Virus record (IMG/VR): IMGVR_UViG_3300009149_000001
Coordinates: 10,199 to 74,198 of that record
DNA: 64,000 nucleotides
DNA from: a virus
Direction: 5' to 3' (one strand)
In this document: positions 31,560-54,306 of the stretch, one piece after another
How positions within the stretch are numbered: the stretch's first letter is position 1
Layout of the letters: every line of letters begins with the position of its first letter
The notes under the pieces: generated by a model
Databases searched by the model: none
What the model saw: the letters and a program-made list of their open reading frames with translations, nothing else
What the model was told of the DNA's origin: nothing
Made by a program: the position numbers and the translations under genes

Positions 31560-32312
31560 CTAGGCTAAGCCGCCAGGAATGTTATTGAACCTTTCGATAG
31601 CAATACCATTTCTGACTGAATCCTTTACATCTTGTCTACAATGTTTAAGGATGTAGTTAATTGACTTTTGCCATTGGGGGCTGTCTTTAAATCTCACCTT
31701 ATACCAATATTCGAGTTCAACGAATGTTTTATCCGAATGACCTGCAACTATTAGGTTTAGGTTGTTTAAAGTATTACGGTTGGCCTTTAGGGTTGTTTTC
31801 ATCTTTCTCCATGTATCAGAGAATTTAAGTTTACCATAGTCAGGAATGAGCTCTGGTTGATCAGTTAATAAACATCTTGATCTAAAGAAAGGCATATCAA
31901 ATTTAGTTGAATAATGGCCTTCTATCATGTCACAGTCCTTCATGCAGAGAGAGAGATTCTGTAATAGGACTCTATCAAAGTTAAAGTTATTTTTTGCAAC
32001 AGCGGATGAAATGTCTTTTTTAGAAATGTGGTATTCAAAAGATTCTTTTTTATTGGTTACAATATCACGACGTGTAAAGCAAAAGCATATCATGAAATTT
32101 TGATATGGATTAAAGTCTGAGGTTTCAATGTCCCAATAACCAATGTATCTAATACCGCGTTCTAAATATCTGACTTGAATGTCAGTTAATTTCTTTTTAA
32201 ATTTCTTTTCTAATATTCTACGATCTGCTTCAAATTTAAGTACACGTTTCTCATATGCTGATAAAAATAATCCTTCTTTACGTTTTTGTTTTAATTCTGA
32301 TTCCAAAGACAT
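31560..32312 (-). CDS. DnaQ/RNase_H_2-like 3'-5' exonuclease
   Basis: ExoI WDIET, ExoII GHY..KFD, ExoIII HC..DV. Confidence 0.85.
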   Translation of the reverse strand: MSLESELKQKRKEGLFLSAYEKRVLKFEADRRILEKKFKKKLTDIQVRYLERGIRYIGYWDIETSDFNPYQNFMICFCFTRRDIVTNKKESFEYHISKKDISSAVAKNNFNFDRVLLQNLSLCMKDCDMIEGHYSTKFDMPFFRSRCLLTDQPELIPDYGKLKFSDTWRKMKTTLKANRNTLNNLNLIVAGHSDKTFVELEYWYKVRFKDSPQWQKSINYILKHCRQDVKDSVRNGIAIERFNNIPGGLA

Positions 32313-32419
32313 AATTTAATAATTAAATAGTACTATTAGTATTCTATGGATAGTCTAAAAAAAGGTTAAAATCCTTCTGACCATTTTGCAGTAAATGTAG
32401 ACTGTGTTGAGATATTTAA

Positions 32420-35263
32420 CTACTCAGCCCAGAATTCTGTCATATCCATAGTAATAGTATCACCTGCACCATCATCCATGAACACCTCAACTGTGTGTCT
32501 ATCTGATGATAATGCTGAAACATCAATGGTTCCAGTTTTAACTTCAAAGGCAGCACTAGTGGTGGTTAATACTAGAGAATCTGATGCTGAACCATCTAAT
32601 CTAATTCTAATATTTGCAGTTGTACCCACATTACTGGTTTTTATTCTAACTGCAACAGTTAAAGTCTGGGCATCAATTGTTGCTGCATTTTTAATAAAAT
32701 CTATATTCTTAACTTCTGTTGCTGTAGTTCCAACAACTGTAACTGGAGTTGAATCTGCACCTAATAATGCTTTACCACCACCACCATCTTGGAAGGTTGG
32801 TGCTGCTCCTGCACCATTTGAGGTTAACACTTGTGTTGCTGTACCCACAGCTACTGTTGTTGGAGATCCTGCTGCATCCCAAGTGATAAGTTCACCATCT
32901 GTTCCGTTTGCTAACATGGCTACATCTACTGCACCTGCTGCGATTGTAGTAGCATTACCAACTGAAGTTACATCTCCTGTTAAGTTTGCGTTAGTTGTAA
33001 CATTACCTGATGTTAGACCTGCTGCTGTTCCAGTAAGATTAGTTGCTACTCCAGATACTGGTGTACCTAGTGTTGGAGAAGTTAAGGTTAATCCTGCTAT
33101 TGTTGTGTTTGTTGAACCAGATGCAATAGATGTGCTACCTATTGTTGGTGCTAAATATGAAGCTACAACTGCCCATGTATCGTCACCTCTAAGGAATGTA
33201 GTTGCATCTTTAGTTCCTGTTGCTGTAAGTCCTGTAGTTGCTGGTAATCCAGTTGCATTAGTTAAAATACTTCCTGCTGCCACTGTTCCTAATACTGGTG
33301 TTACTAAAGTAGGACTTATTAATGGTGCTTTAAGATTTAATTGTGTTGTAACTATTGCTGGCACATTAGGTAAAACTACAGTTCCAGTGAATGTAGGACT
33401 TGCAAGTGGTGCTTTACTAGCAATAGTACCAACACTTGTTACAGATGCATCATCATAAGCGTTTGTATCTGCATTACTTTCATATTGAGTTTTAATGGTT
33501 GCTGGTGTTAAGTTTGCTTGTGCTATAATCCAATGTGATTCTAATGTTGCTGTATCTTGTTTTGCAATAATTGAATCTCCTACTTCGAGTGGTATTGTAA
33601 AGAATGTACCAGCGACACTTGTTACATAATGATCTCCCTTAGTAATTGCAATAGGAGTTGTATCTAAATCAGGAGAGTTTGTACTTGCATTATAATCACC
33701 TTTTAATGTAATATCACTAGTTAAAGCAGTACCAATTTCAGTATCAACATAGGCCTTTACTGATTGTTGTGTTGGAACTCTTGTATCTAAATCACTTGCC
33801 ATATTATCTTCATCAATAGCAATACCTAATCCTGCTGTAGTTGTATCTGATAACATCAATGCTCCTGCTGCATTTACATTAGTTGCATCTGTTACATCTG
33901 CGAGTGCTTCTATGCCATCTACTTTAGTTTGTAGAGCAGAGCCTGCTAATCCTGCTGGAGTAATTGTTCTAAGGGCATCAGTACCAGTATTAATTTCTGT
34001 TATTGTTGCTAATTCTGCTACACCTGAAACAGTTGAACTTGCTGCTACTTCATCACCTGTATTAGTTCCGCTGGTATTTTGTAAAATAGTTTGTTCAGCA
34101 TCAGTAATTGTATTTGTATTTGCCTCTAATTCTAAAGCGGTTTTAATTTCCGCCCCTGTTTGGTCAGCGGTTGCACTTGCTTCAATAGCATCAAGTTTAG
34201 CAGACCTTGCAGACCCCTCAATATCTGCACAAGTTACCGCCCTTGTTGTATCTGTACCCGTATCAAGTTCAGCAATGGTTGCAAGTTCTACAACGCCCTC
34301 AACGGTTGCACTTGCTGAGACTTCATCACCTGTGTTAGTTCCTGATTGATTTCCTAATGTAGTTACATTAGCATCAGTAAATGCATTTGTATCTGCATTT
34401 AATTCATATGCTGTCTTTATTTCGGCATTACTTTGATCTGCTGTAGCAGAAGCTTCAATACCATCTAATTTAATTTTATCTAATTTTGGCATTAACCCAT
34501 GAAGTAAGGTAGTTGCATCTCTAGTAGTGATATCTGTTGCTGCAGCCATTGAATCTATTGTATTAGTTTTTACTTGAGTATCAAAGTTTGAAACAGTTGA
34601 GGCTAATTGAGTACCTGTATGATTGACTCTAGCTAATGGATCTGTTGCAAGTTTACTTAAATCAATAGCTGCACCAGCTTTAATATCAGCATTTTCAATA
34701 TTTGTTATACTATTACCTGTGCCATCTGCATTAATTGTCTTATTTGTTAAAGTATGAACAGATGTATCAGTTAATACATTAGCACCAATATCTAAAGAAT
34801 CAGCATTAGCAACAATGTTACCTGTAGTACCAATAGCATTAATAGTATTAGCTGTTTTGGTTAAACCAGTACCAGCTGTTATCTGACCAGTACCTGTAAA
34901 TTGTGTAAATGTTAAAGATGTGGTATCAAGTGTAATAGGATCATTAGTTGTAATAACAAAACCTTGATCTGCATTTACAGTTCCTTCTTCAATCCATAAA
35001 TACATTGATGATGTTAATTTTTCATTATTATTTGCATCTTCTGATCTTGACCATGCCCCAGAGGAAGTGACATAAATACCATTATCTTCACCTGAAGATT
35101 GGTCTTTAACTAGTACTCTGGATTTACTTGTAAGAACACCATCAATGGTTTGTTCACCATATAATGTTAAATTACCAGTACTTGCGACTTTAACGGAATC
35201 TTTAACATCAAAAACTGTTGGGATTTTAACTTGATCTAAAGTCCGCTTGTCTAAATCAGCCAT
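32420..35263 (-). CDS. Long mosaic fibre protein (head or tail fibre)
   Basis: N-terminal V..A.T.N..L.G.QTIDG...RVLVKDQ...NGIY domain; ~90-aa internal repeats (KLD.IEASATADQ..AEIKTA...SGTNTGDE...VELAT..E..TGTD); KAPLASPTFTG. Confidence 0.8.
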   Translation of the reverse strand: MADLDKRTLDQVKIPTVFDVKDSVKVASTGNLTLYGEQTIDGVLTSKSRVLVKDQSSGEDNGIYVTSSGAWSRSEDANNNEKLTSSMYLWIEEGTVNADQGFVITTNDPITLDTTSLTFTQFTGTGQITAGTGLTKTANTINAIGTTGNIVANADSLDIGANVLTDTSVHTLTNKTINADGTGNSITNIENADIKAGAAIDLSKLATDPLARVNHTGTQLASTVSNFDTQVKTNTIDSMAAATDITTRDATTLLHGLMPKLDKIKLDGIEASATADQSNAEIKTAYELNADTNAFTDANVTTLGNQSGTNTGDEVSASATVEGVVELATIAELDTGTDTTRAVTCADIEGSARSAKLDAIEASATADQTGAEIKTALELEANTNTITDAEQTILQNTSGTNTGDEVAASSTVSGVAELATITEINTGTDALRTITPAGLAGSALQTKVDGIEALADVTDATNVNAAGALMLSDTTTAGLGIAIDEDNMASDLDTRVPTQQSVKAYVDTEIGTALTSDITLKGDYNASTNSPDLDTTPIAITKGDHYVTSVAGTFFTIPLEVGDSIIAKQDTATLESHWIIAQANLTPATIKTQYESNADTNAYDDASVTSVGTIASKAPLASPTFTGTVVLPNVPAIVTTQLNLKAPLISPTLVTPVLGTVAAGSILTNATGLPATTGLTATGTKDATTFLRGDDTWAVVASYLAPTIGSTSIASGSTNTTIAGLTLTSPTLGTPVSGVATNLTGTAAGLTSGNVTTNANLTGDVTSVGNATTIAAGAVDVAMLANGTDGELITWDAAGSPTTVAVGTATQVLTSNGAGAAPTFQDGGGGKALLGADSTPVTVVGTTATEVKNIDFIKNAATIDAQTLTVAVRIKTSNVGTTANIRIRLDGSASDSLVLTTTSAAFEVKTGTIDVSALSSDRHTVEVFMDDGAGDTITMDMTEFWAE

Positions 35264-36150: not shown

Positions 36151-36438
36151 CAACACCAAATCTAGAGGAACAACGTAACGTATAATATACTAGTAATTAA
36201 TTCAATGAATAGCTTATGGCCATTAACCATACTTCTATGGCTTTTCACCATATGGACCCTTGAGACCCTTAAATATTGAGAAAAATCGTATACAAATGTG
36301 TGCCCTCAGCGACCTACGTTCCCTACTATGGTGAGGGGGATCGAGGGCAAACCGGGGTATATAAACTTTTATTTTTAATAAGGTAATACCTTATTCTTTT
36401 AAGATTAAAATAAAAAAATAAAAAAAGATTATATTACC

Positions 36439-36708
36439 TTATTCTTTTAAGGTAAAATAATATTGTTTAGGTGAACCTACCCGAACTATAATATTTTGTT
36501 TTCTAAGTTCTGTTAACACATGGTTAATGTGTTGGGTACGTTTACCTAACTTCTCTGAAAAGTTTCTTTGTGTAAAACTTGTATTAGGGTATTCTTTGAA
36601 TACCTTAATCATAGTTTCTTTTAAACTATTTTCAGTAGTTCTAACGACCTGGTTTTCTAAATCTTTAAACTTAGAAACTAGGTCGTTGTCTTTTTGAACA
36701 TTTGTCAT
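36439..36708 (-). CDS. Winged-helix protein, paralog A (Ala-free, GpC-free gene)
   Basis: Close paralog of 39396..39674 (shared KVFKEYP.TSFTQ.NF..KL.KRTQHINHVLT.LRK.N). Confidence 0.85.
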   Translation of the reverse strand: MTNVQKDNDLVSKFKDLENQVVRTTENSLKETMIKVFKEYPNTSFTQRNFSEKLGKRTQHINHVLTELRKQNIIVRVGSPKQYYFTLKE

Positions 36709-37048
36709 TAACTATAGTAAGTAATAAGGGTAATATAAACCGGTGTATTAACCCAACCTTCTTATAGTAAGTCGCGCGGCACCCATTATCTTTTCCTAAT
36801 ATAAATGTTTCATCCATGTAGCCCCTCGCGCGTAGACACCCCCCTCAATACGACGGTCTATATAGCCCGGGGGGGTATAGAAGGTGAGGGTCTAGAGTCC
36901 CCTCCCACGGGTGCTTCTTTTTTGTCCCGGGTTTGGTTTCGGCTCCGATACTTTATCTAACCCGCGGTTCTATATGAATGGTAGTAACGGGAGCTTCGAG
37001 ACCCGGTCCAATACTACGGTATATATTAGGGAAGAGATTAGAGTAAGT

Positions 37049-37150
37049 ATGGAAGAGAAAGTTCAACTCACCGCAATGGAACAGTTCTTTGTGGGTGAGA
37101 TAATCGACATCGCGGTATTCGCGGAAGTTCAAATCGCCGAGGGCGATTAA
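37049..37150 (+). CDS. 33-aa acidic early peptide
   Basis: Own class-1 promoter and oligo-T terminator. Confidence 0.7.
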   Translation: MEEKVQLTAMEQFFVGEIIDIAVFAEVQIAEGD

Positions 37151-37217
37151 CTTTTTTTTTTTCTCTAAGTCCCCATGCAATACGACCATTCATATAACGA
37201 AACAGATAAGATAGATT

Positions 37218-37376
37218 ATGAAATATCTCAACGATGTAGTAGCTTTTTATGAAGAGCTATTAAAAGATGTAGAAAAAGAAAAACTAGTAAGAGCAGTAGT
37301 AATAGAAATGATAAATGATATTACTATTGAGAATGTTAGTTTTAAAAACTTAAGAAAAGATTTATTTAAAGAATAA
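37218..37376 (+). CDS. 52-aa early protein (gene lacks GG and CC)
   Basis: MKYLNDVVAFYEELLKDVEKEKLVRAVVIEMINDITIENVSFKNLRKDLFKE; own promoter and terminator. Confidence 0.7.
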   Translation: MKYLNDVVAFYEELLKDVEKEKLVRAVVIEMINDITIENVSFKNLRKDLFKE

Positions 37377-37780
37377 ATTTTTTTTTTATTTTTTTTAGGT
37401 GTTTGTCGGGTGAAAAACTTTTGCCTCTGATTCTAATATCTACTTTCCCTTATATGAATGTTTAATCGGGTGAGGCCTTCGAAGACATGTCTTGTCCCCT
37501 CGCGGCGGGTGACTTGGACTTTTGTGAGTTGAGTGTGAGAAGGGGTGAGTGGAAGGTGACTCCACTCGTTTTCACCTTTTCCCCTTTTCGTGGTGAGGCG
37601 GCTGCTCGGGGTGAGAATCTGTGTCTCACCACGGTCCTAGGACACTTCCGTGTCGTCGCACTCCGTTCCTCATTAGGATCTATTATCTAATCACCGTACC
37701 GTTATATGAATGGTAGTATTGGAGTTGAGTCCGGGGCCTCCTTTCCTACCAGTTATATTAGGGAAGAGATAAGTGATAAT

Positions 37781-37915
37781 ATGACACAACGAATAAGTCA
37801 AAGTCGATATGAAGTAATAATCTTCGGAAAAGTCGATGAAACGTATAATGAAAAATATTATACGATAGGTGGAGTAAAGAATAGAATTCGAGAATTAGAA
37901 AAACTCGATTTCTAA
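37781..37915 (+). CDS. 44-aa early protein (GpC-free gene)
   Basis: Own promoter and terminator. Confidence 0.7.
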   Translation: MTQRISQSRYEVIIFGKVDETYNEKYYTIGGVKNRIRELEKLDF

Positions 37916-38054
37916 TTTTTTTTTAATTTTGTGAGGTGAGTTCGTTTAGCCACTGATTCTAATATGTACGAAGGATAATATATATGTTTCATCTGAGTCG
38001 GGGGCCGGAACTCCAATACTACCAGTTATATTAGGGTAGTGTGTAGTATAAGGT

Positions 38055-38231
38055 ATGAGAGAAAGATATGAGTTGAGTAGAGAACTCCTTCACACCCTTC
38101 AGGGTGTTTGGGATGAAGAGGGTGAGAGTTTCTCCTTCGTTCTCTTCGTACTCTCTCAACTCCAGAAGGAGGATAAGTTAAGTCTCCGACACGACGAAGA
38201 GAAGAACGAGTGGATCGTAAAGATTCCTTAA
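38055..38231 (+). CDS. 58-aa early protein (GpC-free gene)
   Basis: MRERYELSRELLHTLQGVWDEEGESFSFVLFVLSQLQKEDKLSLRHDEEKNEWIVKIP; own promoter and terminator. Confidence 0.7.
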   Translation: MRERYELSRELLHTLQGVWDEEGESFSFVLFVLSQLQKEDKLSLRHDEEKNEWIVKIP

Positions 38232-38361
38232 CCTTTTTTTTTAATTTATCGGGTTGAGTTTTTTCGACTCTGATAGATAAGAAGATGAAAGGGTAATATA
38301 AATGTTTCATCAGGGGAGCCCCCAGCCTACGGTTTATATAACCCAGGCGGTTAGTGTAAGT

Positions 38362-38553
38362 ATGAGAGATGAAAGCCTCCTATGGCAACTCAAGAAGCGA
38401 AACGCAGCAAAGACACATTGTCTCCGCGGCCACGAGTTGCCAACACATCGCGATAGCCACGGCCGTCGCTTTTGTAAGAAGTGCGATTGTATCCGCGCCA
38501 AGCGAGCAAACGCAATCGTTCAAGCCAACAAGCACAAGTTGTGGTTTGAATAG
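38362..38553 (+). CDS. Stand-alone KTHCxxGH...CxxC zinc finger
   Basis: KTHCLRGHE...GRRFCKKC motif, known from C-termini of phage HNH proteins; own promoter and terminator. Confidence 0.7.
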   Translation: MRDESLLWQLKKRNAAKTHCLRGHELPTHRDSHGRRFCKKCDCIRAKRANAIVQANKHKLWFE

Positions 38554-38616
38554 TTTTTTTTTTTACCTAAGTCAGCAATTACTACCATTCATATAGAGCT
38601 AATGTGTATGTATATT

Positions 38617-38763
38617 ATGACACAAATAACAGATGGAGAAGATCTTTTGTTCCTCGCAAAACTCGCACAGCGAGATGGCTGGAGCAAAACAAAATTCGCA
38701 ACTTTCGCAGGCATCCACCCGACGGCCGCTGGATACCTCTATGACACGGAGGCTATCGCATGA
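38617..38763 (+). CDS. 48-aa HTH-like early protein
   Basis: GWSKTKFATFAGIHPTAA; follows a class-1 promoter. Confidence 0.55.
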   Translation: MTQITDGEDLLFLAKLAQRDGWSKTKFATFAGIHPTAAGYLYDTEAIA

Positions 38764-39050
38764 GCGATGCGTGTGTCTTCGGAAAGTGTCGGAGGTGCGG
38801 ACAAGTGAAGTGCTCCCACGCGGACAAGACCATGGAGGGTGACCTATGACGTGGTATCATTGGCAAGGCAAGTGGTATTCAAAGTCCACACTGGACGTGA
38901 ATGGACTTAGCACGTTTGGGTTGTCGAGGTCACGAGTGTGATACTTGGTGGTTGGCTGCTCCTGGCACTCGTGGTTGGGGTTGCCGCCTGGATGGCGATG
39001 TGAACGGGTCCAATACTACCACTTATATTAGGGAAGGTGATAGTGATAGT

Positions 39051-39194
39051 ATGGTGAGAGCAACAATCACATTCACACTCGAGTATCCCAATGACGCACC
39101 TATGTCAATTCTCGAAAGTGAAGCAGATGAAATGCAACAAGCACTCCAAGACGAGTACGAGGTTGAGGTAGACACTGAAGTCTGCTTCAACTAA
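39051..39194 (+). CDS. 47-aa strongly acidic early protein
   Basis: 13 D/E against 1 R; own promoter and terminator. Confidence 0.7.
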   Translation: MVRATITFTLEYPNDAPMSILESEADEMQQALQDEYEVEVDTEVCFN

Positions 39195-39395
39195 TTTTTT
39201 TCTATAGGCAAGCGCAACATTCATATTAGCCTTTCACCTTCTTATCTAGTTGAGTTAAATTTTTTTAAAAAAAAAAAATTCATAAAATCCTATAAGTCCC
39301 CACTGGGCTTTCCCCGCGGAAAGGGCGGTGAGTCTAGTATATAAGGGGCGCCGCAATCCTACCAGTTATATAACGGAAGCGATATATTATATTTA

Positions 39396-39674
39396 ATGAC
39401 AAATCAAAAAGCAAGCAGCGACGAAAAAATCTTAGAATCTTTTAAAGATTTAAAAGATCAAGTAGTCGCTCCTAATGCAAATAGCTTAAGCGAAGTTATT
39501 ATGAAGGTATTCAAAGAATATCCTACTACTAGCTTCACTCAAGGAAATTTTGCAGCTAAGCTTTCTAAGAGAACGCAACATATAAATCATGTGTTAACAG
39601 ATCTTAGAAAGAAGAACCTTATTATAAGGGAAGGTTCTGCAAAACAATATTATTTCAGATTAAATTCTGAATAA
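39396..39674 (+). CDS. Winged-helix protein, paralog B
   Basis: Inverted paralog of 36439..36708. Confidence 0.85.
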   Translation: MTNQKASSDEKILESFKDLKDQVVAPNANSLSEVIMKVFKEYPTTSFTQGNFAAKLSKRTQHINHVLTDLRKKNLIIREGSAKQYYFRLNSE

Positions 39675-39916
39675 TTTTTTTTTATTTTTTTTAAAGTCTC
39701 AATCCGACCATTTATATTAGCCTTTGTGATAATAAGAGTGGCGTTTAGAAGTTTGTTCCGCGTTTCCCCCCGCATAGTAGTGGGTAATACCTTTATTCCT
39801 TACTTTAATTAATTTTAATTGATAAAATCCTATAAGTCCGCCCCCGCCCGTCGCGTAGGACTTGGCGGAATGCCCGCATACGCGCTGCCCGCCGTGCCCG
39901 TGCTGCCCTTGCCCTT

Positions 39917-40136
39917 GGGGCGGGCACTACATAAGCAGTTTTGGTCGGCCCTAAAATGTATATTCTTTGGGCGGGCCCTACAATAGGGGGTTTTGGTGGA
40001 CTAAAATGGGGCGGTCACTACAATAGAACTCTTCACCGGCCCTAAGGTTCCTTTGTCGGGCCCTACAATAGCAGTTTGGACGTGGCCAAAAGTGCTTTAC
40101 CGTCCCCCTGACCGACCGGGTCACTATATAGCAAAC
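39917..40136. repeat. Degenerate ~42-bp tandem repeats (GGGCGGKCMCTACAATAG....TTTGG..GGCCCTAAA)
   Basis: Units at ~39917, 39968, 40008, 40054, 40115; further copies near 40668 and 40744. Confidence 0.75.
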
Positions 40137-40264
40137 ACAAGACATATATGAACCACAGCAGGCCTATACGCAGCTATATAGAACTATATAGTTAAGGCGG
40201 GTAAAGTGTTCCACCGATTAGTCAGAGGAAAATATTTATATAGTAGTTTTGTTAATAATATGTA

Positions 40265-40609
40265 ATGACAAATCAAGTAAAAGTTCCAATGGGTCCAGTT
40301 GAGGCAAAACCTGCAACTAAGACTATTGGGGCAAAGAAAGGCGTAGTAGAGTCATTTGAGGACTTAAAGGGACAACAAGTACCAACCGGTGCAGAAATGT
40401 CTACAGGTTCTAATGGGGCTTTAATCGTCAAAATCTTTCAGGCATATCCTGACACTGTATTCACACAGAGACAGTTCGTGGACAGATTGGACATTTCAAA
40501 TCCGTTCGTCAACCACATTCTACACGGGCTAATGAAAAAGGGCATTGTGAGCAGAGTCGGCAGTCCTAGAAAGTACTATTATTCATTAGTAGTCAAATCG
40601 GTCCAATAG
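40265..40609 (+). CDS. Winged-helix protein, paralog C
   Basis: SFEDL.GQ, YP.T.FTQ, VNHIL, RVGSP..YY. Confidence 0.8.
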   Translation: MTNQVKVPMGPVEAKPATKTIGAKKGVVESFEDLKGQQVPTGAEMSTGSNGALIVKIFQAYPDTVFTQRQFVDRLDISNPFVNHILHGLMKKGIVSRVGSPRKYYYSLVVKSVQ

Positions 40610-40883
40610 GGCCTTTTTTTTATTTACGGTAGAGGGGGCACCTAGGGCATTAGTTATTCCTACTTAGCGGACACTACATAAGGGATTTTGGTGTGGCCAG
40701 AATTCATTGTGGTTTATAGGGGCAACAGATGTCTAGTAAGGGCGAGCAATACAACAGCGATTTCATTGTGGCCAAAAATTACTATTTTTCCCCCGATTAT
40801 CAATATAATAATATTTATATATTAGTAAAAGAATATATAGTAATGACAAATAGAAATAGAAAAGTCCTAAGGAGCACCAAGGC

Positions 40884-41576: not shown

Positions 41577-41876
41577 ATGAAGAGCTTTCCTAGTAAGTAC
41601 AAAGGCAAGTGCAATACTTGCAATGGACCTATTCCAGCGGGCACCATGATCAACTGGTCCCGTGAATTAGGGGCATTCCATGTCAATTGTGAAGTCATTA
41701 TTGATGGCAAATCACAGCAAACATTGGCAGATGAATGGGATCGTGAACACGCCAACGAACCAACTTGTTTAGATCGTTTCGAGGCAATGAGAGTCGATCC
41801 AGTGTACAAAGATGTACCAGAAGATGCAATCTATACCTATGCATCCCAGGATACGAGGAGGAATCCATACCGATGA
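41577..41876 (+). CDS. Zinc-ribbon protein (KY.GKC..C...I..G..I.W...H..C)
   Basis: Recognisable phage zinc motif; GGAGG upstream. Confidence 0.6.
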   Translation: MKSFPSKYKGKCNTCNGPIPAGTMINWSRELGAFHVNCEVIIDGKSQQTLADEWDREHANEPTCLDRFEAMRVDPVYKDVPEDAIYTYASQDTRRNPYR

Positions 41877-42166
41877 CTCGTATCATGTGTGGTATTCATG
41901 GGGAGGTTGAGTCAACTACATGGGAAGGGGAACAAGTATGTCCTTGGCATCAAAGAGTGTCACAGTCCGAAGAAGGACCTGTCTTCATGTACGAAGAGTT
42001 CAATCAGGATGGGGAAGAATGGTAGCACCACCCCTTAACATAGGAGAGAGAGAGGAGGACGGAGTCGTCCTTCAATGACCTTCAAACTTTTTTCTTATCA
42101 TTTCATGCGAGTGTTCGAAGGAACATTCATTTTCACTAATGACGAGTTAGAGGAGGTGGGACTAGG

Positions 42167-42418
42167 ATAGACGAACCATCACGAGTCGAATATAGTGGAT
42201 ATGGCTACGACCACCACGGTATAGCAGTTACAGTAACACTTGAGGACATTGGCAAATATGCTGAAGAAGTCAAGAAAGAACTAAAGGAGACACATCCTGA
42301 GGGGTACACTGTAGCTACCATGATAGCTCAAACCGGGCTTTTCAAGTTACAAGATAACTTACCGTCGTGGTTAGACATAGACACGTCGGACTGTATGGAA
42401 ACATACAGTGTCGACTGA
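42167..42418 (+). CDS. 83-aa protein with ATA start (missed by the ORF track)
   Basis: Open frame (M)DEPSRVEYSGYGYDHHG...; GGAGGTG 8 nt upstream; ATAG overlap with the upstream stop. Confidence 0.65.
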   Translation: MDEPSRVEYSGYGYDHHGIAVTVTLEDIGKYAEEVKKELKETHPEGYTVATMIAQTGLFKLQDNLPSWLDIDTSDCMETYSVD

Positions 42419-50300: not shown

Positions 50301-50537
50301 ATCGCTCCTAGATGTAGAGGTATATGTCACCGTACACAGGTGGGATTTAAAATGTATTCACATGCCAAGTTTTGTTCTAAATGTAAATGGTGGAGACCAA
50401 GGGAGAACACCTTCTGTGAGTGTTGCACTCAAATATTAAGAAGCAGACCGCGATCATATAATAATGGAACGAATATAACTTATGAAATCAAAAGAATCGA
50501 AAACAGCGAAAAAGGATTTGTCACTCCCCACAGGTGA
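50301..50537 (+). CDS. Thaumarchaeal-type Cys-rich small protein (CxGIC...CxxC...CxCC...LRxxP); ATC start proposed
   Basis: The CRGIC motif lies upstream of the first canonical start (GTG 50340); in-frame stop at 50265. Confidence 0.6.
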   Translation: MAPRCRGICHRTQVGFKMYSHAKFCSKCKWWRPRENTFCECCTQILRSRPRSYNNGTNITYEIKRIENSEKGFVTPHR

Positions 50538-51120
50538 GGCTCAAATTGAGACTTGTCACTTGGGTATACCTATTACAGAGTATGAGAGGGATAGCATAGA
50601 TGAATCATCCTATATCCATGAACACCTTACAACCTTAAACTTTATAGTAAAAGAGTTTAATTGTAAAAATATCCTAGAGATAGGTACAGGTCCTGGTGAA
50701 AGCTTAATGGCTATGTCAGAAAATAATCCACATGCACATATAACATCAGTTGATATTGAATATGCCCATAAAGCTTATGATAAATTGATGTTTAGGATGC
50801 ATAATATGTATAATGACTATCCTCTTAACAATGTGACCTTTATTAAAGGTGACTCGGCTAAATTAGATATGTTAGCTTGGTGGGATTTAGTATTGATAGA
50901 CGGTGGACATACATATGCTCAAGTTAAAAAAGATATAACACAAGTGCAATCATGGGTTAAAGATGGAGGATTTATGATATTTCACGATGTAACTAATCCA
51001 GCTTGGCCTGGTGTACGTAAAGCAGTTGAAGAGTATTTAGAGAAAGACCATACTTGGACTAGATACCAATGGTTTAACTGTAATGGTCTTCTAGTATTAA
51101 GGAGAGAATTAGTTGACTGA
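50482..51120 (+). CDS. Class I SAM methyltransferase (Methyltransf_24-like)
   Basis: ILEIGTG.G.S, SVDI, GDS, IDGGH.Y, GG...FHD. Confidence 0.85.
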   Translation: MKSKESKTAKKDLSLPTGEAQIETCHLGIPITEYERDSIDESSYIHEHLTTLNFIVKEFNCKNILEIGTGPGESLMAMSENNPHAHITSVDIEYAHKAYDKLMFRMHNMYNDYPLNNVTFIKGDSAKLDMLAWWDLVLIDGGHTYAQVKKDITQVQSWVKDGGFMIFHDVTNPAWPGVRKAVEEYLEKDHTWTRYQWFNCNGLLVLRRELVD

Positions 51121-51775: not shown

Positions 51776-52465
51776 TTGGTAGATGTATTTATAGCAGCCG
51801 AGATTGGTTGTAATTGGCATGGCGATTATGAATTATTAAAACGAATGTGTCGTAAAGCACAGGAGGCTGGATGCAATGCAGTTAAGTTTCAAGCACTATC
51901 ACAGCCACTAATTGATCGTCATCCTGAATGGAATTGGTATGAATCAGCAAGTGTTAACGAAATGAACATAGACTTTATCTCTTTATTAGTTACTTCAATG
52001 GGTTTGGAAATGTTTGTTACGCCTTGTTATCCTGAAGCTGTGGAGTTTATTGATCCTTATGTTACTATGTATAAAATTAGATATGCTGATAGAAATAACA
52101 AAGAGATATTAGAAGCTTGTCTTGCTACCGGTAAAGAGGTCATACTTTCAACTGATAGGATGATTGATGATTACGAGTCTAAATACAAACATGGTCAATT
52201 AAAACAGATATATTGTATTCCAAAGTACCCAACTGAGTACGGCGAATTGAACTTCGATATGATAAAGTTATTAAGGGGGTACTCTAATCATTGTTTGAAC
52301 CCTATTGCAATACTTAACGCTGTCAGACATGGTGCAGAATATGTCGAATTTCATATCACTGATGACAGAAATGAATTTGCTATTGATAACAAAGTATCAC
52401 TCAGCTATGCAGAAATGGATGAAGTCGTTAAATGGATAAGGAGCTATGAAAGAAATCCATTTTAG
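51776..52465 (+). CDS. neuB: Nonulosonate (N-acetylneuraminate-family) synthase, no SAF domain
   Basis: IAAEIG.N..GD, G..AVKFQ, YKI, C...YP, GYS.H, GA..VE.H.T...D...SL. Confidence 0.88.
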   Translation: MVDVFIAAEIGCNWHGDYELLKRMCRKAQEAGCNAVKFQALSQPLIDRHPEWNWYESASVNEMNIDFISLLVTSMGLEMFVTPCYPEAVEFIDPYVTMYKIRYADRNNKEILEACLATGKEVILSTDRMIDDYESKYKHGQLKQIYCIPKYPTEYGELNFDMIKLLRGYSNHCLNPIAILNAVRHGAEYVEFHITDDRNEFAIDNKVSLSYAEMDEVVKWIRSYERNPF

Positions 52466-52567
52466 TATTGAAGTAGATGAACTAACTGATAGACAGAGAG
52501 AGCGTTTACATATTCTTATTCGAACTGAATTACAACGAAATACTGAACATCTGGTGATTAAAGGATT

Positions 52568-53185
52568 ATGGCCAATCCCGGAATAATTATACAAGCTCGC
52601 TTGACGAGTGACAGATTTCCAAATAAGATGCTCTGTCCTTTGTACGGTAAACCTGTTATACAATGGACTGTTGAAGCATGCCTGAAATCTGGTTTGCCTT
52701 TTGTAGTTGCAATTCCAGATAAGAGAACTGACTGGGGTCTAGCTGAATGGTTTAAGTTATATGATCCTACAATTGAAGTGTTTTCAGGTCATCCAGATGA
52801 TTTAATTTCTAGATTTAAGCATGTAAATAATGTAATGGATTTTGATCCTATTATTAGAGTTTGCGGTGACTCACCAATGATGAAGGTGTCTGATATACAT
52901 GATGCTATGTATCAATTTAATAAATATGGTACATATCAGAGAGTAAACTTGGTAGAAATCTTTTCACAAAAAGAATTAGATTATGCTGCCAACAATGATC
53001 CGTTTATGGCTCGTCGTGAGGATTGTGTTAATATATTAAATCAGACAGTTGATTATCCAGAGGATATAGATAGAATAGAGGGTGAATGGTTATTGGATAA
53101 CTCCCAAGATAATAATATGGAATTAAACAAAAATAGAATTAATAATGATTTATCAGATTATCAATCAGGAGAAACAGGACTTTAA
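52568..53185 (+). CDS. CMP-nonulosonate synthetase (SpsF/NeuA-like cytidylyltransferase)
   Basis: IIQARL.S.RFPNKML, IRVCGD.P, TVDYPED. Confidence 0.85.
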   Translation: MANPGIIIQARLTSDRFPNKMLCPLYGKPVIQWTVEACLKSGLPFVVAIPDKRTDWGLAEWFKLYDPTIEVFSGHPDDLISRFKHVNNVMDFDPIIRVCGDSPMMKVSDIHDAMYQFNKYGTYQRVNLVEIFSQKELDYAANNDPFMARREDCVNILNQTVDYPEDIDRIEGEWLLDNSQDNNMELNKNRINNDLSDYQSGETGL

Positions 53186-53632
53186 ATGAACGGATTAAAA
53201 ATAACTGATGAGTCTTTAAAAAAACATCAAGAAGAAAGACAAACAGCAGCAGCTTTAGGATTTAAATTAATCAAACAATTTGTAACAGATTATCCGAACA
53301 CTGAATATCCATCAGTTGATGATAATTTAATTGAAACATTTTGTAGAGGTGCTAGATTATTGGGTATGTATCACATGGTATTACCAGAAGATGATACATT
53401 TTGTCCGACTTGTAAATACACGACAGGTAAATTAAAGAATTGTCTATCACTTCATACAATGGAAGGTTCGGGCAAAGATTCAACACTTTGTATATATTGT
53501 AGTTATGAAGGAACTATACAAGATTTGGGAATGAGTTTATCATTTGGTGATGAAGAAGATCATGATTGGAACATACAGAAAGAACATGACTATTATAATA
53601 AAGCCATATTAAAAGCAGAGGGTTGGAATTGA
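53186..53632 (+). CDS. Hypothetical zinc-binding protein
   Basis: CPTC and CIYC. Confidence 0.5.
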   Translation: MNGLKITDESLKKHQEERQTAAALGFKLIKQFVTDYPNTEYPSVDDNLIETFCRGARLLGMYHMVLPEDDTFCPTCKYTTGKLKNCLSLHTMEGSGKDSTLCIYCSYEGTIQDLGMSLSFGDEEDHDWNIQKEHDYYNKAILKAEGWN

Positions 53633-54306
53633 CTAATAGAGTATTAATAGTTGGTGCAGGGCCTTCCCTCAAATCTAATATAGCTGATTTTAAAAGGTTA
53701 GGAGATTTCGATGGGACTGTTATTGCTACTGATGCAGCTATTCAGCATTTACTCAGAGCGGATATCGTACCAACTGTCGGTGCTTGTCTCGAAGATCTTG
53801 CGGCGTTAACTAAATACTTTGTCCCAGATGTTGTAGTTGAGAGAGGACATGAGATAGAGAAATGTTGGATTAGTGATAGAGTTCACGGTCAAGTAAGAGC
53901 AACTATGAAGACCGCTAATATACCATTCGAGGTAGCAGCAAAGACTAGATTAATTGGTACCTCTAATGTAGGGTTGTTTAGTACAGCCATTGCACATTTA
54001 ATTTATGAAAGCGACGAAATACATTACATCGGTATGGATCACTGTTACCCTGCCGATTCACCTCCTCCTGTACCTAAATCAGATCCCCTTTATGAGCTCG
54101 GGTTTTATGAGATTGTCAATCCTATCACTAATGAAACGCTCGTCTTAAACCCAGCACATGAGTTGTGGAGAGAGGAGCTACATGAGAATTTAAAACTTTG
54201 GCCTGAGGTCAAAATAATTAATCATACTGGTTATGGAGCAATATTCGGGAAACAAATTACATGGCAACCACTGAAAGATCTACAAGAGTGGAAAGAGAGT
54301 TACTAG
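53623..54306 (+). CDS. DUF115/MAF_flag10 (Maf-like) putative nonulosonate transferase
   Basis: IVGAGPSL, IATD.A...L....I.P, SNVG, I..IGMD, IIN.T..GA. Confidence 0.75.
   Translation: MELTNRVLIVGAGPSLKSNIADFKRLGDFDGTVIATDAAIQHLLRADIVPTVGACLEDLAALTKYFVPDVVVERGHEIEKCWISDRVHGQVRATMKTANIPFEVAAKTRLIGTSNVGLFSTAIAHLIYESDEIHYIGMDHCYPADSPPPVPKSDPLYELGFYEIVNPITNETLVLNPAHELWREELHENLKLWPEVKIINHTGYGAIFGKQITWQPLKDLQEWKESY

Follow-up and report, generated by a model that had tools for sequence, protein, structure and literature searches.

Why should a viral genome in which the dinucleotide GpC is common (observed/expected ratio, o/e, 0.96 genome-wide) hold a cluster of mini-genes without a single GpC? We address this question in a 74,198-bp genome that probably belongs to an archaeal tailed virus, using a window of 64,000 nucleotides to which the coordinates below refer unless a contig is named. 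The 98-bp terminal overlap of the genome sits inside a gene and thus shows that the assembly is circular, and nothing more about the genome ends. GC-containing palindromes are not under-represented genome-wide (o/e AGCT 1.04, TGCA 1.01, GGCC 0.95, CGCG 1.06), the only low palindromes being GCGC (o/e 0.58) and CATG (0.77), and the genome's lowest-GpC windows concentrate at 36.3–38.0 kb. Where the late and early modules diverge, dense consensus promoters accompany tiny genes: an array at 36731–40249 comprises no fewer than 16 conserved promoters of the TATA type, distributed over both strands, and within it 16 of the 17 promoter regex matches of the whole window are located. Judged by its sequence, the array is putatively immediate-early, with transcription starts, terminators and early timing predicted from motifs only.

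GpC is lost cassette by cassette

The original prediction placed three GpC-free units at 36348–36774, 37737–37949 and 38005–38318, each encoding a protein without Ala, and both parts are borne out, to the nucleotide and to the residue. The first run, cassette A (427 nt; 0 GpC vs 6.8–7.9 expected), begins in the spacer that precedes a plus-strand TATA box (36357) and ends in the one that precedes A's own promoter, whose class-1 TATA-like core (36731–36743, minus strand) is followed ~21 nt downstream by the ATG; gene A (36439–36708, minus strand) encodes an 89-aa winged-helix protein. Cassette B (213 nt; 0 GpC vs 3.8–4.5 expected) carries gene B (37781–37915, plus strand; 44 aa). Cassette C (314 nt, 40% G+C; 0 GpC vs 9.8–12.2 expected), a run that takes in its antisense class-2 promoter, carries gene C (38055–38231, plus strand; 58 aa), for whose protein a homologue search found none. 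By length, the runs of A, C and B rank first, second and eighth, respectively, among all GpC-free runs, both in the window and in the whole genome.

Cassettes E and D, located between A and B, do carry GpC, and the pattern is all-or-none by cassette. The interval 36348–38318 contains 32 GpC, in E, D, the 36775–37050 stretch and spacers, and these include GGCC three times, AGCT three times and CGCG eight times. The return of GpC at the junctions between promoters and its frequency elsewhere in the genome had also been anticipated, and the words responsible can be located: residual GpC bounds the runs, as in GGGGCC at 37733–37738 in the spacer of back-to-back promoters, similar words lie at about 38000–38006, 38314–38323 and 36773–36781, and the inter-promoter words carrying GpC are GGGGCC, GGGGGCC, GGGGAGCCCC and GCGCGGC. 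Of the six boundaries of the runs, four or five are located in spacers that precede TATA boxes, a count to be read with the spacers being few and G+C-rich and the starts predicted. At least one residual GpC, that at 37949, is placed ~6 nt into a predicted antisense transcript, and that at position 401 of the relative L007 (see below) lies inside the non-coding unit; both thus fall in predicted transcripts.

Across cassettes with the same class of promoter, GpC is absent from A, B and C, normal in E, D and G and enriched in F and H, which makes GpC density a property of the individual cassette. Cassette F (38325–38570, plus strand) contains 22 GpC vs 13.9 expected, and its coding sequence 20 vs 10.2 expected with the protein fixed. 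The GpC-enriched cassettes, one of which holds a paralogue of A, had been overlooked in the original prediction. Partial depletion is seen in a non-coding G+C-rich unit on the minus strand (37405–37695; 8 GpC vs 18.8 expected), the counterpart of the nearly GpC-free positions 1–507 of L007, and a second, weaker GpC-poor patch lies in the downstream early operon (41800–42200, plus strand; 5 GpC vs 18.6 expected over 400 nt).

The notion that each unit bans a different dinucleotide, aimed at a different class of factor, does not hold, as GpC is the one dinucleotide that reaches zero in any cassette with an expectation of at least 3, be it in the window or in L007. It had been based on unit D (37143–37424; gene 37218–37376, plus strand; 52 aa), which contains GpC but was said to exclude GG and CC, and its protein Gly, Pro and Trp. 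These absences are real (GG-free 37143–37398, CC-free 37187–37424); with 4.9 GG and 0.7 CC expected (protein-fixed P = 0.05 and 0.37, respectively) they follow from the unit's 21–23% G+C and are within chance.

How unusual are the GpC-free runs?

Local-composition block shuffles, considering GpC alone, yield P ~0.003 for a longest run of at least 427 nt and P ~0.004 for a second run of at least 314 nt. When the cassettes are cut at promoter/terminator landmarks, P is 1e-3 for A, 2e-2 for B and 6e-5 for C. With all 16 dinucleotides ranked together the C run is fourth and the A run about fifteenth, and a survey of 0.93 Mb from unrelated viruses gives ~13 A-like runs per Mb (~1 per genome) and ~1 C-like run per Mb (~0.08 per genome). 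On these comparisons cassette C clearly stands out, whereas A is a borderline case and B alone is not significant. The window by itself makes a moderate, suggestive case for GpC exclusion.

The signal in the coding sequences is mostly loss of Ala, since with the protein fixed only 0.3–2.3 GpC are expected per ORF and the Fisher combined P for the eight ORFs of the GpC-free stretches is 0.095. Together, these ORFs contain 0 Ala in 447 residues (P ~3e-14 at the genome's 6.7% Ala).

GpC exclusion is conserved and extends to non-coding DNA

Lack of avoidance in orthologues had been set beforehand as refuting the prediction, which survives this check: the metagenome relative L007, which shares class-1 promoters, T-run terminators and orthologues of A, E and B, keeps the GpC exclusion. 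L007 contains 6 GpC vs 65 expected over 1981 nt (P ~5e-21), the depletion being contiguous over the whole 2-kb contig, and its gene B orthologue (1857–1979 of L007) has 0 Ala and 0 GpC. The 58% G+C non-coding part contains 3 GpC vs 41 expected, the minimum of 5000 shuffles being 26, and GpC o/e in L007 is 0.09, as compared to 0.37 for the lowest among 1470 control windows. As the depletion in L007 includes G+C-rich non-coding DNA, it is the nucleotide sequence on which the exclusion operates, and the two viruses have it in common. That L007 shares the purge suggests avoidance of some enzyme reading 'GC'.

GpC-dense paralogues of gene A

Gene H (39396–39674, plus strand), situated at the opposite edge of the promoter array and pointing away from it, encodes a 92-aa paralogue of A (63% aa identity) with 6 Ala, and contains 13 GpC where 7.9 would be expected for a fixed protein (P = 0.001). 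Its orthologues L009 and L010, which have the same upstream region, and L008 likewise exceed the protein-fixed GpC expectation (P ≤ 0.001), and the enrichment in H and its orthologues is about two-fold; avoidance alone is therefore not enough as an explanation. The existence of GpC-dense paralogues of the GpC-null gene A is a new observation here.

Within the family, Ala counts are bimodal (0 in six members, 4–6 in eight), and P0003, with 0 Ala, clusters with P0004 and H, with 6 Ala each (support 99/99). The Ala positions of H-type proteins are occupied by Ser, Lys, Thr, Pro or Asn in A-type proteins, the remaining protein being conserved. The codon alignment of A against H also displays AGC to AGT twice, AAG|CTT to AAG|TTA and ACG|CAA to ACC|CAA, and these silent changes, along with the GpC-free flanks, place the constraint on nucleotides and not only on protein. 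The predicted winged-helix model of the A/H proteins has a pLDDT of 82 and is matched by solved chains of Z-alpha, the winged helix that binds Z-DNA/Z-RNA, with target-normalised TM of 0.81–0.85 and rmsd of 1.3–1.9 over ~60 residues; in the same structure comparison the SmtB and MarR wHTH proteins equal Z-alpha by E-value, and against Pfam z-alpha both H (19.4 bits) and A (12.4 bits) score under the gathering score of 21.

What could have removed GpC?

Selection on the nucleotide sequence has very probably purged GpC from whole promoter-to-terminator cassettes of the putative immediate-early array: we observe the exclusion itself, find it conserved and see it at work at synonymous as well as non-coding positions, and, every Ala codon being GCN, the Ala-free proteins are a by-product. 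We see very little room for the reading in which small A+T-rich genes, rich in Lys, Glu and Asn, came to lack Ala by chance and cluster through ancestry and cassette recombination. Although the low protein-fixed expectation per ORF, the A-like runs in unrelated viral DNA and the similar runs elsewhere in the genome when all dinucleotides are ranked fit this reading, it is largely refuted by L007, whose non-coding part lies far below expectation and whose o/e falls under the control minimum; cassette C, with 0 GpC vs 12 expected at 40% G+C, the 447 residues without Ala, the bimodal Ala counts and the flips of state between near-identical proteins argue in the same direction. Erasure of GpC by context-specific mutation, for instance through a cytosine deaminase directed to GpC in heavily transcribed or single-stranded DNA, with selection only keeping the frames open, is similarly hard to credit. 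It would account for the richness of the L007 non-coding part in AC (o/e 1.86) and GT (1.45), the products of GC to AC and GC to GT changes, but the AT-rich GpC-free parts of L007 and of the window show no AC/GT enrichment, the 13 GpC sites of H correspond in A to four GC-to-GT, no GC-to-AC and nine other changes, Ala gives way to Ser, Lys, Pro, Glu and Arg where deamination would yield Val and Thr, and the adjoining cassettes are untouched or enriched. Least credible is that alanine itself is avoided, with tRNA-Ala or its charging attacked, or a protease at work, and GpC loss secondary: the lack of Ala in all eight ORFs agrees with this, but GpC is also missing where it would span codon positions 2-3 or 3-1, as well as from promoters, terminators and the long G+C-rich non-coding part of L007.

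Two readings at the level of DNA deserve more weight. Restriction evasion, which we hold to be unlikely, would make the array the first-transferred DNA, surviving a host nuclease with GC sites until the pre-early products disarm that nuclease, after which sites elsewhere in the genome would be harmless. This has experimental precedents in Murciavirus (PMC12455610) and T5/BF23 (PMC10644984). The anatomy fits as well, a promoter-dense array of tiny genes lying at the late/early divergence point; GpC is absent from a delimited early block and present elsewhere in the genome, the L007 depletion runs unbroken along the contig, and a self-complementary dinucleotide suits recognition of double-stranded DNA. 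However, the block is interrupted in the window by the 32 GpC (L007, with 6 in 1981 nt, is nearly continuous), the GpC-enriched cassettes are left unexplained, and bare GpC is, to our knowledge, read by no nuclease, the nearest in specificity being CviJI (RGCY). Evasion of CRISPR PAM recognition, which had also been proposed, is weak, as the remaining genome stays targetable. Escape from the virus's own 7-deazaguanine modification, likewise part of the original prediction, is rather doubtful too. A DpdA4-type transglycosylase of the virus would put 7-deazaguanine at G in GpC (or GGC) context, such that GpC-null cassettes would be modification-free islands and GpC-dense ones heavily marked, and the behaviour of a cassette would depend, or not, on whether it is read from a modified virion template or a fresh unmodified one. 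FolE, QueE, QueC, an NDT-like gene and a DUF6610 protein were found (QueC match 2.8e-66; QueE-like 2.2e-27; GTP cyclohydrolase 3e-41), although L005:1477–2274 matches PF20314 (DUF6610) only marginally, its 28.0 bits lying just above the cut-off of 27 (E = 2e-6). DUF6610 corresponds to DpdA4, which has been described as archaeal-virus-specific, and in HVTV-1 modification is found at ~30% of G (PMC10516641), which implies context specificity; DpdAs are known to read short motifs, namely GA and GGC for that of CAjan (PMC7544227) and, as reported, GA only for that of phage iggy (PMC10484667). This modification reading covers null as well as dense cassettes, and GGC is present on at least one strand at 6 of 6 residual GpC in L007 and at 5 of 7 at the run edges of the window (genome baseline 34%), although the excess reaches only P ~0.02–0.03 after allowing for G+C-rich spacers. 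Against it stand the marginal DUF6610 match, a recognition motif established for no DpdA4, the presence of GpC in same-promoter cassettes and all replication genes, and the unexplained need for unmodified mini-genes. Genes for the modification invoked in the prediction are present, the DpdA4-like one by its marginal match, but the addition that host RNAP can thereby read the cassettes does not fit, since same-promoter neighbours and all downstream early genes carry GpC.

We tentatively favour insensitivity at the level of the transcript, which we regard as possible: GpC density may set the sensitivity of a message to a GC-reading endoribonuclease or RNA sensor. The all-or-none cassettes, the enrichment in H and L008–L010, the normal genome-wide o/e and palindrome counts and, with the reservation made above, the boundaries in spacers speak for selection per transcript, whereas the RNA level, the enzyme and the early timing are inferred. 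Such an enzyme may belong to host defence, or the virus may make an RNase of its own to time early expression, in the manner of T4 RegB at GGAG; the GpC-null messages of A, B and C would outlast it, the GpC-dense messages of H and F would be short-lived, and the A/H pair would make one winged-helix regulator available in either regime. Among the virus ORFs scanned, none was identified as an RNase or RNA sensor specific for GC, and since GpC is self-reverse-complementary, strand does not separate RNA-level from DNA-level selection. The residual GpC in predicted transcripts and the prokaryotic precedents, which act on DNA, also count against this model. Cassette shuffling occurs in relatives, and the cassette-wise pattern could come from recombination of arrays under different regimes instead of from transcript-level selection. 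A bolder extension, which we consider improbable, is that GpC density is a two-state code, with A (null) and H (dense) at opposite edges of the array reading the activity of one GC-specific enzyme, be it an RNase that cuts at GC or the viral DpdA4 with its deazaguanine transglycosylase activity; the readout would switch from an incoming-genome to a replicating-genome programme. If true, the sequence itself would encode a sensor for the state of modification or of a nuclease, one that may be met again in unrelated viruses in the form of early cassettes free of a dinucleotide.

Whichever agent is involved, a dinucleotide purge that costs an amino acid implies one of very low sequence specificity and high penalty, and we know of no description in archaea or their viruses of a GC-reading defence nuclease, RNase or DNA-modification specificity of this kind. 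The locus is a natural experiment in which the same promoters come with GpC-null, normal and dense cassettes, plus a paralogous pair at both extremes, so that the hypothetical GC-reading enzyme is directly testable; it could also offer a first handle on the context of DpdA4-type deazaguanine modification.

Comparison with known systems

Murciavirus (Autographiviridae) escapes Type I R-M if the motif is absent from the first-injected region only (PMC12455610), and T5/BF23 are described as injecting a first-step-transfer region with pre-early genes (PMC10644984; Davison and Brunel 1979 therein). These prokaryotic precedents of early-region motif loss work on DNA (PMC12455610, PMC10644984). As in those phages, the word is lost here from a delimited early block with small early genes and common elsewhere, and the shared logic would be that the first-exposed DNA must stay invisible. 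Their sites are of 6–13 bp and belong to an identified bacterial host enzyme, whereas here the word is a bare dinucleotide in a probable archaeal virus, one amino acid is lost with it, the block is interrupted and its leading-end position is putative; the GpC-enriched sister cassettes have no counterpart in Murciavirus or T5/BF23. Nor does the locus resemble genome-wide palindrome avoidance in phages, since short-word selection is local here and AGCT, TGCA, GGCC and CGCG are at expectation.

CpG suppression in the immediate-early IE1 transcript of HCMV evades ZAP (PMC7498042). Here, too, a dinucleotide is suppressed in particular immediate-early transcripts and not genome-wide; in contrast, HCMV is a virus of eukaryotes, the RNA-binding sensor is known and suppression is partial, while in our case suppression is total, the dinucleotide is another one and the factor is hypothetical. 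The T4 endoribonuclease RegB cuts GGAG in early mRNAs, and mRNAs without ACA or GCU are resistant to MazF or MqsR, respectively. In these systems an RNase with a short motif sorts transcripts and the motif-free ones persist, much as in the transcript-level model proposed here; unlike for RegB and MazF, no such RNase is seen among the ORFs scanned, and the specificity would be 2 nt. We know of no DpdA that targets GpC and of no genome with modification-free gene islands. Like the DpdA systems of CAjan, iggy and the DpdA4 viruses, the virus has a preQ0 pathway and a DpdA4-like gene, and the contexts read by DpdAs are 2–3 nt long with G first.

GpC is absent from three early mini-genes

The three GpC-free runs that the original prediction placed over the early mini-genes A (36439-36708, minus strand), B (37781-37915, plus strand) and C (38055-38231, plus strand) are present exactly as claimed, with genome ranks of 1 (A), 8 (B) and 2 (C), and the encoded proteins, again as claimed, contain no alanine. 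From local base composition, 7.9, 4.5 and 12.2 GpC would be expected in A, B and C, respectively. When GpC alone is considered, shuffles in 50-200-nt blocks reach a longest run of at least 427 nt with a probability of ~0.003 and a second-longest of at least 314 nt with a probability of ~0.004; among 139 ORFs, the two lowest p values belong to the ORF over C (8e-5) and to ORF A (4e-3), and the others follow the null. When all 16 dinucleotides are considered, comparable dinucleotide-free runs are also found elsewhere in the genome, and in 0.93 Mb of unrelated viral DNA we detected A-like improbable runs at ~13 per Mb and C-like ones at ~1 per Mb. If the proteins are held fixed, few GpC would arise from synonymous choice and codon junctions (2.3 in A, 1.0 in B and 2.3 in C), and thus the effect within the ORFs is mostly the missing alanine. 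GC-containing palindromes show no genome-wide avoidance.

It had further been proposed that each pre-early unit is recoded to exclude one specific dinucleotide, hiding it from sequence-specific factors. Unit D (37143-37424; gene at 37218-37376, plus strand) is indeed free of GG and CC, and no Gly, Pro or Trp occurs in its protein; this absence is not beyond chance (4.9 GG and 0.7 CC expected; P = 0.05 and 0.37, respectively, with the protein fixed). Across landmark-delimited cassettes, no dinucleotide other than GpC drops to zero where at least 3 are expected. Overall, the observation is largely confirmed and its interpretation partly supported: the exclusion of GpC stands, and that of a separate dinucleotide per unit does not.

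Several other compositional irregularities were recorded. A second GpC-poor patch lies at 41800-42200 in a polycistronic early operon (5 versus 18.6 expected per 400 nt, ~49% G+C), a TG-free run lies downstream of gene J (40549-40689; 141 nt, 12.4 expected), and CA-free and TG-free runs overlap in the A terminator region (36333-36517). Seven of the genome's 25 most improbable dinucleotide-free runs fall within 36.3-40.7 kb. The genome as a whole is strongly short of CpG (o/e 0.57), and late genes contain CpG-free runs as long as 762 nt (e.g. 34424-35185 and 32282-32905). Within the promoter array, CpG is at or above expectation (0.9-1.5), and in cassettes B, E, F (38325-38570, plus strand) and I it exceeds the prediction from genome codon usage. 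An unrelated IMG/VR viral contig, L116, has a 508-nt GpC-free run (15 GpC expected), 6 GpC versus 26.6 expected in positions 1-1000 and a whole-locus o/e of 0.59.

The pattern follows the cassettes of a promoter array

A dense promoter array at 36.7-40.25 kb separates the late module from the rightward early genes and contains 16 of the 17 whole-window matches to the promoter regular expression. Class-1 promoters (consensus AATACnACCnnTYATATWA) end 20-22 nt ahead of the tiny-gene ATGs, a spacing that would fit the TATA box at ~-26 and the leaderless mRNA of archaeal promoters, and each tiny gene of the array is followed by a T-run. At several units, a class-2 promoter (GATGAAACATnYATATWA) faces back into the 3' end, and back-to-back promoters are separated by short G+C-rich spacers (GGGGCC, GGGGGCC, GGGGAGCCCC). 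A T7-type promoter reading was dropped and a host TATA-box promoter preferred, since no T7-like RNA polymerase was found among the ORFs scanned, the largest unassigned one being 723 aa.

In this genome the GpC pattern is all-or-none by cassette rather than one continuous block: GpC is present between A and B, namely in cassettes E and D and in the stretch 36775-37050. The run edges at 36347, 36774-79, 37736, 38004 and 38318 lie in spacers upstream of TATA boxes, and one (37949) lies ~6 nt within a predicted antisense transcript. We rejected the idea that GpC survives only in a modification-protected GGC context, as this context, seen at 11 of 13 boundary sites, is marginal after spacer composition is allowed for; other residual GpC in the window is mostly CGCG. 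The hexamer CGCGCG occurs just twice in the 64-kb window (~0.5 expected), at 36773-36778 and 36827-36832, flanking a class-2 promoter just upstream of the gene A promoter. Directly past the array, 39780-40200 is GpC-rich and carries repeats of words such as GGGCGGGC...TTTTGGT; this stretch could act as an origin or packaging site, or as an element resembling an injection stop.

Near-identical or 80-95% identical copies of the cassettes of 36300-39800 are found on soil and seawater metagenome contigs (X2, X3, X5 and X6), in differing order and with some units skipped or replaced; on a 428-nt contig (in X2 and X5), just a 15-nt linker, itself free of GpC, separates B from C. All seven substitutions listed for B are to A or T, and hence none creates a GpC. 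The array cassettes are mobile, shuffling modules.

GpC exclusion extends to non-coding DNA in a relative

Protein A has homologues, and a metagenome scan gave five loci. One of these, L007 (1981 nt), carries orthologues of A (56% aa), E and B (59% aa), and its class-1 and class-2 promoters, T-run terminators and terminator-promoter junction words are all as in the window. Avoidance holds in this relative: L007 contains 6 GpC versus 65 expected (o/e 0.09, P ~5e-21), and its longest GpC-free run is 865 nt, while the lowest GpC o/e among 1470 control windows of equal length is 0.37. The non-coding part (58% G+C) has 3 GpC versus 41 expected, the minimum over 5000 shuffles being 26; CpG is not depleted (o/e ~1.1, against 0.57 across the viral genome). 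These data show that GpC exclusion is specific, operates at the nucleotide level and is conserved over ~40% protein divergence, and the non-coding data exclude chance and protein-level causes. Taken alone, the persistence of GpC-freeness despite divergence is weak evidence (P = 0.14 for A and 0.16 for B against the L007 orthologues A7 and B7).

G+C-rich non-coding units adjoin the cassettes both in L007 (1-507, with GACAC/GTGTC 15 times) and in the window (37405-37695, rich in GGTGA/TCACC). RNA structure beyond that of shuffles was not detected in L007 1-507 (z = 0.04) or in window 37405-37685, minus strand (z = -1.7), and Rfam gave nothing significant in the array or L007; these units may be arrays of protein-binding sites. 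IMG/VR scans with protein A, protein C and the alignment query A1 yielded no relatives, DNA-pattern scans gave chance matches only, and the protein collection searched contained no homologues of B or C. Locus L011 was rejected as a relative, being an unrelated T4-like fragment.

A winged-helix family exists in two states

The virus encodes three paralogous small winged-helix proteins, A (36439-36708, minus strand), H (39396-39674, plus strand) and a third at 40265-40609 (plus strand). Alanine counts across the A/H family are bimodal: zero in A, P0002, P0003, P0007, P0008 and the L007 copy, and 4-6 in H, P0004, P0006, J and the loci L006, L008, L009 and L010, with P0002, P0003, P0004, P0007 and P0008 compared by protein alanine counts only. 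P0003 (no alanine) clusters with P0004 and H (six each) with support of 99/99, indicating near-identical proteins that differ chiefly at alanine positions. In the codon alignment of A and H, the GpC-removing synonymous differences are two AGC to AGT changes and two codon-junction changes. H-type genes are in turn GpC-enriched with the protein fixed (13 versus 7.9, 14 versus 8.1, 16 versus 8.3 and 13 versus 6.9; each P <= 0.001). As the H-like L009 and L010 have an upstream region in common with H and belong to one sample series with L007, the pair of GpC-null and GpC-dense genes is conserved.

The best small-domain match of the AlphaFold model of A (pLDDT 82) is Z-alpha (target-normalised TM 0.81-0.85), alongside SmtB and MarR. 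H scores 19.4 bits against Pfam z-alpha, under the cut-off of 21, and BLASTP of an approximate Z-alpha query segment, an unreliable query, gave no alignment with H.

The virus is likely an archaeal tailed virus

The window covers bases 10199-74198 of an IMG/VR virus record of 74,198 bp, which is closed by a 98-bp terminal overlap. It has a minus-strand late module of siphovirus type (tape measure, large terminase, portal) and also encodes a family-B DNA polymerase, an ERCC4/HhH nuclease, QueC, a QueE-like radical-SAM enzyme, GTP cyclohydrolase and an NDT-like enzyme. A 265-aa protein matches PF20314/DUF6610, a family since renamed DpdA4 and described as archaeal-virus-specific (PMC10516641), and the terminase clusters with groups bearing the MJ0330_N domain. 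Together with the promoter anatomy, this gene content makes an archaeal tailed virus likely. A TerL scan of IMG/VR returned just two short contigs at ~50% identity; TerL and A1 scans of genome contigs and an INPHARED phage search gave no match.

At 51776-54306, NeuB-family, cytidylyltransferase (CTP_transf_3) and MptE-like genes are clustered beside a class-I methyltransferase (50482-51120), an ensemble that resembles a sugar pathway of the nonulosonic-acid type carried by the virus. CTTA/TAAG is the rarest tetranucleotide relative to expectation genome-wide (614 versus 881, z = -8.5). CATG (o/e 0.77, z = -5.2) and ACATGT (4 versus 19) are low as well; a CATG-type restriction system of the host could account for this.

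Possible causes of GpC exclusion

Since GpC is self-complementary, selection on RNA and selection on DNA are inseparable by sequence alone. A model at the RNA level agrees with the cassette-by-cassette pattern, with GpC in the spacers and with the enriched cassettes, and we favour it tentatively; in this model, the GpC density of a cassette would set how readily a hypothetical GC-reading RNase or sensor acts on its transcript. T4 RegB offers a precedent. Another is HCMV IE1 versus ZAP (PMC7498042). Selection on DNA could instead stem from self-modification, the GpC-null cassettes being unmodified islands in DpdA-marked DNA: DpdA enzymes recognise short G-initial motifs (PMC7544227, PMC10484667) and DpdA4 modifies ~30% of G in HVTV-1 (PMC10516641), but such islands have no known rationale, and we regard this as rather unlikely.

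Restriction evasion by putatively first-exposed DNA, demonstrated experimentally for Murciavirus (PMC12455610) and classically known from T5 (PMC10644984), is in our view unlikely here, as the block is interrupted, GGCC and AGCT sites lie within the array, and the GpC-enriched cassettes are left unexplained. Avoidance of CRISPR PAMs was rejected on logic, the remaining genome still being targetable. No deaminase-type footprint was seen in the A/H comparison. Recombination of mobile cassettes could be an alternative source of the per-cassette pattern.

We found no published account of GpC-free early genes in a literature search. Motif loss in leading or pre-early regions is the closest known kind. 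The present case differs from leading-region motif loss in that a bare dinucleotide is excluded, one amino acid being lost with it, in that sister cassettes are GpC-dense and a pair of paralogues occupies two states, and in that the virus is likely archaeal.
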